Positions 11,582 to 14,266 of a stretch of 64,000 bases of DNA are shown here, one piece after another. The DNA is taken from NCBI RefSeq assembly GCF_011045215.1, contig NZ_CP049201.1; one strand, given 5' to 3'. The notes below the pieces were generated by a model, which did no database searches, was not told where the DNA came from, and saw nothing but the letters and a program-made list of their open reading frames with translations. Position 1 is the first letter of the stretch. The number at the start of each line of letters is the position of its first letter. A program made the translations under genes and the position numbers. The DNA comes from Escherichia coli (GTDB lineage Bacteria; Pseudomonadota; Gammaproteobacteria; Enterobacterales; Enterobacteriaceae).

Positions 11582-12328
11582 ATGAGCCAATATTTGATTT
11601 TTCAGCTTCATGGGCCAATGGCATCCTGGGGCGTCGATGCCCCCGGCGAAGTGCGTCATACCCATGAACTGCCTTCGCGCTCAGCATTGCTGGGGCTGCT
11701 GGCTGCCGGGGTAGGGATTCGGCGTGATGATACCGAACGATTAAACGCGTTTAACCGCCACTATTCACTGGTGGTTTGCGCCAGCCGTAACCCGCGCTGG
11801 GCACGGGATTATCACACGATCCAGATGCCAAAAGAGGTGCGTAAAGCGCGTTATTTCAGCCGTCGCGAAGAGTTGAGCGACCCTGATCTTCTGAGCGCGA
11901 TTATCTCCCGGCGCGACTACTACACCGACGCCTGGTGGATGGTGGCGGTGGCAACAACAGCCGATGCGCCTTACAGCCTCGAACAGTTGCAGGGCGGTTT
12001 ACGCCATCCAGTTTTTCCTCTTTATCTGGGGCGAAAAAGTCATCCGCTGGCATTACCACTTGCGCCGTTACTGCTCGAAGGCAACGCGTCTGATGTTTTA
12101 CGTAACGCATATCACCAGTATCAGGAGCATTTCCACGACCTGAAAATCGCACTCCCGAAACTTCAGGATGAATGCTGGTGGGAAGGGGAGCACGACGGCC
12201 TGGTCGCGAGCAAAATATTGCGCCGCCGGGATGTTCCTTTAAATCGTCAGCAATGGCTGTTTGGGGAACGCACCGTCAATCAGGGGCCGTGGCTCAGCAA
12301 GGAGGAACCATGTACCTCTCAAGAATAA
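11582..12328 (+). CDS. casD: Cascade subunit Cas5e
   Basis: 248 aa; N-terminus QLHGPMASWG...LPSRSALLGLLAAGVGIRRDD resembles Cas5e. Confidence 0.9.
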   Translation: MSQYLIFQLHGPMASWGVDAPGEVRHTHELPSRSALLGLLAAGVGIRRDDTERLNAFNRHYSLVVCASRNPRWARDYHTIQMPKEVRKARYFSRREELSDPDLLSAIISRRDYYTDAWWMVAVATTADAPYSLEQLQGGLRHPVFPLYLGRKSHPLALPLAPLLLEGNASDVLRNAYHQYQEHFHDLKIALPKLQDECWWEGEHDGLVASKILRRRDVPLNRQQWLFGERTVNQGPWLSKEEPCTSQE

Positions 12329-12960
12329 CCTTACATACCGGCCAGCTTTCGCCTGCGCAGTTGCTGCATCTGGTGGAGCGCGGGGAATATGTGATGCATC
12401 AGTGGCTGTGGGATCTCTTCCCTGGCGGCAAAGAAAGGCAATTTCTTTATCGTCGGGAAGAACTCCAGGGCGCGTTTCGCTTTTTTGTACTGTCGCAGGA
12501 ACGCCCGGCGGAAAGTGAAACGTTCACCATCGAATGCCGGTCATTTGTGCCCGAGCTGCGTACCGGACAACAACTTTGTTTCAACCTGCGGGCGAATCCA
12601 ACAATCTGTAAAGCGGGCAAGCGCCACGATCTGCTGATGGAGGCGAAACGGCAGGTGAGGGGGCAGGCGGAAGGAAGTGATGTCTGGTTGCATCAACAAC
12701 AGGCGGCGCTGGACTGGCTGGCAGCGCAGGGGGAGAGAAGCGGTTTTACACTGCTGGATACCTCGGTTGATGCCTACCGACAACAGCAACTGCGGCGGGA
12801 AAACTCCCGGCAACTGATCCAGTTCAGTAGCGTGGATTATACGGGGATGCTTACGGTCACCGATCCCGGGTTATTTCTGCAACGTCTCAGTCAGGGGTAT
12901 GGCAAAAGCCGCGCGTTCGGCTGTGGTCTGATGCTGATCAAACCCGGAGCAGAGGCGTGA
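12310..12960 (+). CDS. casE: Cas6e pre-crRNA endoribonuclease
   Basis: ORF 12172..12960 trimmed to MYLSRITLH (216 aa) preceded by an AAGGAGGA RBS; C-terminal glycine-rich GxGxxxxxGxG loop; overlaps the cas5 3' end. Confidence 0.9.
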   Translation: MYLSRITLHTGQLSPAQLLHLVERGEYVMHQWLWDLFPGGKERQFLYRREELQGAFRFFVLSQERPAESETFTIECRSFVPELRTGQQLCFNLRANPTICKAGKRHDLLMEAKRQVRGQAEGSDVWLHQQQAALDWLAAQGERSGFTLLDTSVDAYRQQQLRRENSRQLIQFSSVDYTGMLTVTDPGLFLQRLSQGYGKSRAFGCGLMLIKPGAEA

Positions 12961-13880
12961 CGTTTGTACCACTGAGTCCGATCCCGTTAAAAGATCGCAC
13001 CTCTATGATCTTCCTCCAGTACGGTCAAATCGACGTACTGGACGGCGCTTTCGTGCTGATCGACAAAACCGGGATCCGCACGCACATTCCGGTGGGATCG
13101 GTCGCCTGCATTATGCTCGAACCGGGAACGAGAGTTTCCCACGCGGCGGTGCATCTGGCCGCCACGGTGGGAACACTGCTGGTCTGGGTCGGTGAAGCGG
13201 GCGTTCGCGTTTACTCTTCCGGACAACCCGGAGGGGCGCGGGCAGATAAATTACTCTACCAGGCAAAGCTGGCTTTAACGGAAGATCTACGCCTGAAGGT
13301 GGTGCGCAAAATGTATGAATTACGTTTTCGTGAGCCACCGCCAGCTCGCCGTTCAGTGGATCAGCTACGGGGAATTGAGGGATCCCGCGTTCGCCAGACC
13401 TATGCATTACTGGCGAAACAATATGGTGTGAAATGGAATGGTCGCAAATACGATCCTAAAGACTGGGAAAAAGGCGATGTTGTGAATCGCTGCATCAGTG
13501 CTGCCACATCATGTCTGTACGGTATTTCTGAAGCGGCAGTATTAGCCGCGGGATATGCGCCCGCTATTGGATTTATCCATAGTGGCAAACCGCTTTCATT
13601 TGTTTATGACATAGCCGATATCATTAAATTTGATTCGGTTGTGCCAAAGGCATTTGAAATAGCAGCGAGGCAACCCGCAGAACCTGATAAAGAAGTCAGA
13701 TTAGCCTGTCGCGATATTTTCCGTAGCACTAAGTTAAAGGGCAAATTAATACCGTTAATTGAGGAAGTCCTTGCTGCAGGTGAAATTGAACCACCACAAC
13801 CCGCGCCGGATATGTTACCGCCTGCCATCCCTGAACCTGAAACGCTGGGTGATAGTGGTCACCGGGGGCGCGGCGGATGA
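12957..13880 (+). CDS. cas1: Cas1 integrase
   Basis: 307 aa; GTG start overlapping the cas6e stop; closely matches my recollection of E. coli Cas1 (YgbT). Confidence 0.95.
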
Positions 13881-14170
13881 GCATGGTCGTGGTTGTTACA
13901 GAAAATGTCCCTCCGCGCTTACGTGGACGGCTCGCAATCTGGCTACTGGAAGTGCGTGCCGGTGTGTATGTTGGTGATACATCAAAACGTATTCGGGAGA
14001 TGATCTGGCAGCAAATTACCCAACTGGCTGGTTGCGGAAATGTGGTGATGGCCTGGGCGACCAATACCGAGTCGGGTTTTGAATTTCAGACCTGGGGAGA
14101 AAACAGACGTATTCCGGTGGATTTGGATGGGTTACGTTTGGTTTCTTTTCTTCCTGTTGATAATCAATAG
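13877..14170 (+). CDS. cas2: Cas2
   Basis: 97 aa; [34 protein letters not shown]; start overlaps the cas1 stop. Confidence 0.95.
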
Positions 14171-14266
14171 GTTATGTGTTCTTTAAAAATAAGGAAATGT
14201 TTGAATTTAGTTGGTAGATTGTTGATGTGGAATAAATTTGTTTAAAAACAGATATGTATGCTTAGT
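14171..14266 (+). promoter_or_regulatory. CRISPR leader (AT-rich; array promoter and integration-proximal region)
   Basis: 96-bp AT-rich sequence between the cas2 stop and the first repeat. Confidence 0.8.

Follow-up and report, generated by a model that had tools for sequence, protein, structure and literature searches.

Cas1–Cas2 and the Cascade/Cas3 genes of an Escherichia coli type I-E CRISPR-Cas locus: indications of separate histories

We analyzed a stretch of 64,000 nucleotides from Escherichia coli (contig NZ_CP049201.1 of assembly GCF_011045215.1; hereafter the window), which contains a complete and intact type I-E cassette of CRISPR repeats and the cas genes associated with them, sited between cysH and iap. 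The cassette is of the common cas-E1/EO variant; in K-12, the alternative E2/EK cassette occupies this position. Between these two cassettes, the adaptation proteins Cas1 and Cas2 are far more alike than Cas3 and the Cascade subunits, and we consider it probable, with considerable confidence, that this contrast, within a cassette replaced relative to K-12, has two layered causes, namely constraint on Cas1–Cas2 and ancient swaps of interference modules. The underlying pattern is real but known, being module shuffling plus a rate difference; the only modestly new points are the regularity of the junction across genera and a hybrid locus found in E. coli BS-04.

The identity step and the two E. 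coli cassettes

The window was compared with K-12 MG1655 by tblastn searches of the K-12 proteins against the window and by codon alignments. Cas1 was 84.3–84.5% identical in protein and 70–73% in DNA, and Cas2 86.2% and 74%, respectively, whereas protein identity was 29–31% for Cas3, 21–23% for CasA, 30% for Cas7, 33–36% for Cas5 and 27–30% for Cas6e; tblastn of K-12 CasB found no match in the window, and a forced alignment of CasB gave 24%. In 300-nt sliding windows over the codon-aligned DNA, identity was 36–56% at positions 5620–12819 and 66–74% at positions 13120–14170, and the maximum chi-square breakpoint lay at position 12969, 12 nt inside cas1 (chi-square = 329, compared with a permutation maximum of 14.7, n = 200). 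An earlier note on this stretch had described Cas1 and Cas2 as K-12-like and the upstream effectors as far more diverged, which was borne out (84–86% versus 21–36% protein identity); the two long runs of Cas1 that it quoted are both identical in the alignment with K-12, and the sliding-window and breakpoint analysis that it proposed as a check gave a non-uniform profile with this sharp step. The range that it gave, 12310–14266, takes in cas6e (12310–12960), which belongs to the diverged part, as well as cas1, cas2 and the leader; the conserved part begins at approximately 12957–12969.

The difference between E1 and E2 is a whole-cassette replacement whose anchors are the conserved flanks together with the terminal spacer and repeat. 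At the left edge of the divergent block, identity to K-12 is approximately 98–99% through position 5277 and none is found from position 5278, at the start codon of hok; K-12 keeps only the upstream sok/hok leader, through the ATG, and only sokX is annotated there. The right edge lies inside the array, at approximately position 14417, where the last spacer, the degenerate repeat and iap are common to the window and K-12, and this iap-proximal spacer and degenerate repeat are conserved across E. coli irrespective of the cas variant. The published interpretation is likewise that a minority of strains had their entire cas-E set replaced (PMC3903273, PMC3737337). The proportion of synonymous differences (pS) between the window and K-12 was saturated in all of the cas genes, cas1 (0.83) and cas2 (0.73) among them, and the two leaders were 64% identical. 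With cas1–cas2 at 70–74% DNA identity, the window therefore has no adaptation module recently shared with K-12, and there is no young breakpoint at cas6e/cas1 in this window.

A recent intraspecific recombination, in which the resident cas1–cas2–array was kept and cas3–cas6e was swapped, leaving a young cas6e/cas1 breakpoint in the window or in K-12, would fit the sharpness of the step only 12 nt inside cas1, and mechanistically E. coli can undergo such an event, as BS-04 has exactly this crossover. We nevertheless regard it as very improbable for the window and K-12: the synonymous differences in cas1–cas2 (pS 0.73–0.83) stand against 0.01–0.12 in the flanking core genes, the divergent leaders are of a type that is tied to the cas variant (PMC3737337, PMC3903273), and junction queries against 5,426 complete genomes recovered a single hybrid, with none for the reverse junction.

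The window was assigned to E1 on several grounds. Its proteins are 95–100% identical to those of the O55:H7 locus and 21–36% identical to those of K-12; its repeat is the 'A' variant, beginning with GTGTTCC (in reverse complement, ending with GGAACAC), and its leader is 100% identical to that of O55:H7. The guanine–cytosine (GC) content of its cas genes is 49–56%, compared with 43–51% in the K-12 cas genes, and mean values of approximately 53.5% for E1 and 45.6% for E2 have been reported (PMC3903273). The window proteins did not reach the cutoffs of the E2/K-12 equivalogs for Cas3 (NF007248, 429.9 versus 569) and CasA (NF007247, 104.3 versus 576). In E. coli, each cas variant comes with a leader and a repeat variant of its own (PMC3903273, PMC3737337), and leader-A goes with cas-EO (PMC3737337). 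The K-12 cas-E2 cassette shares with the window its subtype, gene order, site, 28 of the 29 repeat nucleotides and the terminal spacer and degenerate repeat, but differs in Cas3 and the five Cascade subunits (21–36%), in GC content (43–48%, compared with 50–56% in the window), in its leader type (T, compared with A in the window) and in a 15-nt gap between casE and cas1, which overlap by 4 nt in the window.

When the locus was compared by megablast with the E. coli database of 5,426 complete genomes, 2,416 of these matched over its full length, with a best identity of 96.5% (O55:H7 and O157:H7); K-12-type genomes matched only in iap and part of cas1. Across this database, E1 was present in approximately 2,650 genomes and E2 in approximately 1,200. 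The known cas-E1 cassette of E. coli (O157:H7-type; 'var. B-8552') has the same cysH–hok…iap site, eight genes and gene lengths as the window, which differs in that its locus is at most 96.5% identical in DNA to any of these genomes and in its short, three-spacer array. We considered strain Ec73552, with cas1–cas2–iap at 84%, as a third and intermediate variant, and rejected it: its annotation and protein identities are those of an ordinary K-12-type locus, and the value of 84% comes from averaging iap (98%) with a partial match in cas1. The per-gene contrast between E1 and E2 is already in print, a 2025 survey having given 73% DNA and 84% protein identity for cas1, 75% and 86% for cas2, and 23–32% or no match for the others (PMC12736100), and the window itself is an ordinary E1 locus.

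Constraint and module exchange in 80 species

The ratio of nonsynonymous to synonymous divergence (dN/dS) was measured inside the E1 lineage, where synonymous divergence (dS) is unsaturated, by comparing the window with E. albertii, Escherichia sp. and Pseudocitrobacter. The ratio was 0.04–0.07 for cas1, 0–0.10 for cas2 and 0.03–0.08 for cas7, and 0.09–0.29 for cas3, casA, casB, cas5 and cas6e. Cas1–Cas2 are under very strong purifying selection: between the window and K-12 their synonymous sites are saturated and the proteins are barely changed, and Cas1e identity did not fall below 74% in the 80 loci of Gamma- and Betaproteobacteria that were retrieved as its closest relatives. Among all pairs of these loci, those of the same effector class with Cas1 at 80–85% had a median Cas7 identity of 57%; for example, the window and Pectobacterium share 85% in Cas1, 57% in Cas7, 46% in Cas3 and 42% in Cas6e. 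Since dN/dS of cas7 is about that of cas1, but Cas7 is only 30% identical between the window and K-12 and the same-class median is 57%, constraint alone is insufficient; it accounts for part of the contrast, not for the drop to 21–36%. We rejected dS as a clock for this pair, as it is saturated in all cas genes and cannot date the modules, and what supports the case is therefore the phylogenetic position together with a calibration drawn from other pairs.

The 80 loci were the best 80 of 202 Cas1 matches, taken from one genome per species with 10-kb flanks and scored against both the window and K-12, and a bootstrapped neighbor-joining tree was computed from Cas1 and Cas2 (approximately 400 columns). 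In all 80 loci, Cas1 was 74–99% identical to the window and 75–95% to K-12, and Cas1 and Cas2 both fell within 70–100% of the window and K-12. Cas3 and Cascade sorted into two classes, E1 and E2, and a small third group, with approximately 30% identity between classes. This pattern was evident in Cas7, which was 43–100% identical to the window and approximately 30% to K-12 in E1-class loci, 51–74% identical to K-12 and approximately 30% to the window in E2-class loci, and weakly similar to both (28–41%) in the third group.

On the Cas1+Cas2 tree, the effector classes were interleaved. Sister pairs that combined different classes were found in Citrobacter (L035/L026, 97% bootstrap) and, each at 100% bootstrap, in Oceanospirillum (L038/L031), Marinomonas (L040/L043), Halopseudomonas (L074/L068) and Alteromonadaceae (L064/L063). 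In the last of these pairs, the Cas1 proteins are 100% identical (pS 0.50) and the effectors 26–35% identical, and DNA identity is 86.9% over 2.28 kb that run from a KilA-N gene through cas1, cas2 and the leader into the first repeats. Where Cas1 was 90% or more identical, cross-class pairs (n = 14) had Cas7 at approximately 29–32%, compared with medians of 85–90% in the same-class equivalents. BLASTN homology between cross-class partners set in at the start of cas1 (position 9995 in L040/L043 and 10013 in L035/L026) or, in L064/L063 and L074/L068, at the start of the KilA-N gene just upstream of cas1, and continued through cas2, the leader and the first repeats. The repeat sequence and leader length tracked the Cas1 clade rather than the Cas6e class, and across the 80 species the Cas1–Cas2 tree, leaders and repeats followed the host lineage, as judged by organism names. 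The phylogenetic results and the points at which homology ends show that the cas1–cas2–leader–repeat unit and the cas3–cas6e unit have had separate histories, and that ancient Cascade/Cas3 classes, two or three in number, were exchanged repeatedly in front of the adaptation unit, with the crossover at the cas6e/cas1 boundary or in the first tens of nucleotides of cas1.

Several further features of these loci were observed. Many I-E loci of marine Gammaproteobacteria have the conserved KilA-N gene (approximately 273 aa; Pfam PF04383, E = 1.3e-21) between their cas6e and cas1, at locus positions 9177–9998 in L064 and from position 9172 in L040, 9130 in L059, 9135 in L074, 9139 in L068, 9154 in L076, 9127 in L049 and 9171 in L063; the copy in L051 is truncated. 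An NCBIfam scan of this open reading frame (ORF) in the marine loci returned nothing significant. The gene was found with all effector classes and travels with cas1, possibly as an accessory to the adaptation unit. In the third effector group, designated X (L053, L063, L075 and L068), Cas7, Cas5 and Cas6e are 23–41% identical to both E1 and E2, and all of these loci except L068 have gaps of 3.0–4.5 kb between casE and cas1 that contain several extra ORFs of 200–490 aa. Two loci on short contigs of metagenome-assembled genomes (MAGs) labeled as Firmicutes ('Bacillota bacterium'; L004, JAEWTL010000035.1) and Actinobacteria ('Collinsella sp.'; L079, JAIJJM010000114.1) have cas genes 94–99% identical to the window E1 genes and are almost certainly E. 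coli contigs mis-binned into these MAGs.

Chimerism at the level of modules is visible on the K-12 side and, more generally, in the deeper history of I-E. Among the 80 loci, the Cas1 nearest to that of K-12 belongs to Enterobacteriaceae UBA5654 (L020, 95%), followed by those of Raoultella terrigena and Citrobacter portucalensis (L028 and L029, 93%) and of Pluralibacter and Enterobacter (L024 and L025, 92%), all of which have E1-class effectors. The most K-12-like effectors occur in Citrobacter amalonaticus (Cas7 74%) and Erwinia endophytica (Cas7 67–68%), where Cas1 is only 83–87% identical to K-12 Cas1, the range found for the E2-class loci L026 and L057. In the E2 cassette of K-12, the interference module is E2-class, and the adaptation unit with which it is combined is of an Enterobacteriaceae type, nearest to units linked elsewhere to E1-class effectors. 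Within K-12, the GC content is 51% in cas1, 43–48% in the effectors and 46% in cas2; we took this contrast as suggestive only and did not rely on it as a mosaic signal. The window cassette, by comparison, is coherent with its E1 relatives, Cas1 being 92–98% and Cas7 84–99% identical to those of E. albertii, Salmonella, Klebsiella and Citrobacter. Both causes that the earlier note offered contribute, though not in the way that its term 'mosaic locus' suggests for the window. Its proposed breakpoint near cas6e/cas1 corresponds to a real exchange, but an old one that took place mostly outside E. coli, rather than to recent recombination between the window and K-12, and the different selective constraints that it offered as an alternative are real for cas1 but do not suffice, cas7 being equally constrained and 30% identical.

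These results also bear on a pure rate difference, in which whole E1 and E2 cassettes split once and Cas1–Cas2 simply evolved more slowly, with no exchange of modules. Synonymous saturation in all eight genes leaves a single old split open as far as dS is concerned, and the low dN/dS of cas1 (0.04–0.07), the plateau of Cas1e at 74–87% across very distant hosts and the fact that Cas1 is always the most conserved protein within the E1 class (95% between the window and Salmonella, with Cas3 at 69%) would all be expected from it. Nevertheless, we consider this explanation unlikely. It does not accommodate a Cas7 that is 30% identical at a dN/dS equal to that of cas1, when same-class pairs with Cas1 at 80–85% retain a Cas7 median of 57%; moreover, K-12 Cas1 is closer to loci with E1 effectors (92–95%) than to those with E2 effectors (83–87%), the cross-class sister pairs with 97–100% bootstrap point to incongruence between the Cas1–Cas2 and effector trees, and one such pair has 100% identical Cas1 at an unsaturated pS of 0.50.

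Cas1–Cas2 depend on host factors and on the leader, and integration in K-12 is dependent on integration host factor (IHF). Convergent adaptation of Cas1–Cas2 to the host, for example to its IHF or repair factors, could accordingly make Cas1 alike within a genus whatever its ancestry, and Cas1 similarity does track the host genus. However, the likeness extends to synonymous sites and to non-coding and accessory DNA, as in the 2.28 kb shared by L064 and L063 at 86.9% with pS at 0.50, and the leaders and repeats co-vary with Cas1; convergence is therefore an extremely improbable explanation.

Exchange of interference modules agrees with the module-shuffling framework of Makarova and Koonin, in which adaptation and interference modules are semi-independent and the Cas1 phylogeny departs from the effector classification (PMC6452270). 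That framework is usually illustrated between types and subtypes, whereas the exchange described here falls within I-E, with one repeat type and a defined junction at the 5΄ end of cas1. In Salmonella, two I-E operon variants, cas-STM and cas-STY, occur in one genus, with cas1 most similar (82.5–87% in protein) and cse2 and cas3 least similar (Cas3 37–45%, Cse2 35%) (PMC7712790). Judging from these reported effector identities, the Salmonella split looks shallower than that between E1 and E2; the S. diarizonae locus among our 80 (L008) is E1a-like.

Recombination within E. coli

The 5,426 complete genomes were searched with synthetic junction queries that joined the 3΄ end of E2 cas6e to the 5΄ end of E1 cas1, and the reverse. 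Hybrids were called by identity and not by coverage, because megablast extends through the cas1 of the other variant at approximately 75%. One hybrid was found, in E. coli BS-04 (L084, NZ_CP172819.1), with E2 effectors and E1 adaptation genes; the reverse combination of E1 cas6e with E2 cas1 was found in none of the complete genomes. The BS-04 locus is 100% K-12-like as far as the end of cas6e and over the first 30 nt of cas1, and E1-like beyond this point, through cas2 and the leader (approximately 86–100% per 50-nt window, mostly 94–100%), and its array is E1-type. The junction lies at 9466–9500, the counterpart of positions 12957–12990 in the window, and the Cas2 protein has the same accession as that of O55:H7. 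In a collection of 15 billion proteins, the chimeric Cas1 is a singleton from one contig; no other assembly with it was found, and the other members of its 306-aa cluster have a normal E1 N-terminus. BS-04 represents either a rare recent event or an artefact of assembly, the latter being less likely in a finished genome.

The window itself is no such hybrid: its effectors are not joined to the cas1–cas2–leader of the other variant at more than 95% DNA identity, and it is E1 throughout, with 92–100% identity to O55:H7 from cas5 through the leader. It does show a patchwork relative to other E1 alleles. Compared with O55:H7 (L002), segments of cas3, casA and cas5 located at positions 5800–9500 and 11800–12300 are 82–95% identical (dS 0.08–0.20), whereas casB–cas7 and cas6e–cas1–cas2 are 99.5–100% identical (dS approximately 0). 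The window is a recombinant allele within E1, and its real mosaic sits inside the interference module. Recombination among E1 alleles has been reported and matches this patchwork (PMC3903273).

Proposed explanation and content of the locus

In the layered explanation that we favor, very strong purifying selection acts on Cas1–Cas2 and on the leader and repeat with which they work, and the adaptation unit tracks the host lineage, while ancient Cascade/Cas3 classes have been repeatedly exchanged in front of it by crossover at the 5΄ end of cas1. Such swaps may be tolerated because both Cas6e/Cascade classes use essentially one repeat hairpin (28/29 identical here), and the conserved 5΄ region of cas1, the repeats and the chromosomal flanks could supply homology for double crossovers. 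Pressure from phages or anti-CRISPRs may drive faster, divergent evolution of Cascade and Cas3, and Cas1–Cas2 would have to go on fitting host factors as well as the leader and the repeat.

Several points weigh against this explanation. The deep nodes of the tree are weakly supported (bootstrap 6–50%) and only the shallow cross-class pairs are strong, with 71% support for the pairing of K-12 with L020 and 84% for the wider Enterobacteriaceae clade. The sampling was partial, being limited to the best 80 of 202 Cas1 matches with one genome per species, and host tracking was read from organism names and not from a species tree. Either module may have moved in any given exchange, and the relative ages of the modules in the window and K-12 are unreadable from dS, pS being saturated in all cas genes. 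Finally, BS-04 is a single genome whose chimeric Cas1 occurs on one contig, and an assembly artefact is possible.

We also propose, tentatively and as something quite possible though not to be favored outright, that the I-E loci of Gammaproteobacteria and some Betaproteobacteria form a long-lived polymorphism, in which a host-tracking adaptation unit is combined with swapped Cascade/Cas3 classes. The adaptation unit, consisting of an optional KilA-N gene, cas1, cas2, the leader and the repeat, would be homogenized by recombination and extreme purifying selection, and the swaps, through crossovers within the initial tens of nucleotides of cas1, would possibly owe their maintenance to pressure that anti-CRISPRs or phages exert on the effector. 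If this is true, the E1/E2 dichotomy of E. coli and BS-04 are local instances of one process.

Mechanistic studies of type I-E rely almost entirely on the K-12 (E2) cassette, whereas most cas-bearing E. coli carry E1. What can be compared between E1 and E2 is limited to Cas1–Cas2 with their leader and repeat, which gives a guide to the K-12 results that transfer: integration chemistry probably does, whereas Cascade/Cas3 structure, anti-CRISPR sensitivity and priming contacts may fail to. One adaptation unit that serves interchangeable effector classes across a fixed junction fits the accepted view of module shuffling and offers a within-subtype system for studying effector replacement and the compatibility demands of Cas1–Cas2.

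The locus is flanked by core-genome genes, cysJIH on the left and iap–cysDNC on the right, and cysJ, cysI, cysH, iap, cysD, cysN and cysC are 97.1–99.7% identical in DNA to K-12 MG1655; iap (14499–15536) is on the minus strand, at 98.4%. The features described below all lie on the plus strand. An intact ORF of 50 aa for a hok/gef-family toxin (5275–5427) corresponds to a coding sequence annotated 'Hok/Gef family protein' in O55:H7. The eight cas ORFs are all intact and co-oriented, constitute the I-E signature gene set in one operon and each encode a protein above the curated NCBIfam cutoff of its I-E family: the E1 variant of cas3 (5620–8319, 899 aa; cas3_core and cas3_HD), casA/cse1/cas8e (8418–9971, 517 aa; TIGR02547, 613 bits), casB/cse2/cas11 (9968–10504, 178 aa; TIGR02548), cas7e/casC (10516–11571, 351 aa; TIGR01869), cas5e/casD (11582–12328, 248 aa; TIGR01868), cas6e/casE (12310–12960, 216 aa; TIGR01907), cas1e (12957–13880, 307 aa, with a GTG start; TIGR03638) and cas2e (13877–14170, 97 aa; TIGR01873). 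The 4-nt overlap noted above is that of the cas6e stop with the cas1 start. Activity of the locus in spacer acquisition, crRNA processing and interference is predicted from the intact ORFs, and I-E systems of E. coli are typically silenced by H-NS, as stated for K-12 (PMC3903273).

Downstream of cas2, an AT-rich leader of 96 nt (14171–14266), of the 'leader-A' type associated with E1, precedes the array (14267–14478), which has the ~29-nt palindromic repeats and ~32-nt spacers of I-E systems and consists of three 29-nt repeats and three 32-nt spacers at a spacing of 61 nt, followed by a degenerate terminal repeat. The repeat is GTGTTCCCCGCGCCAGCGGGGATAAACCG, and it is 28/29 identical to the first K-12 repeat, which begins with GAGTTCC. 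The array of the window is very short, with its three spacers, compared with an array of approximately 880 bp at the same place in O55:H7.

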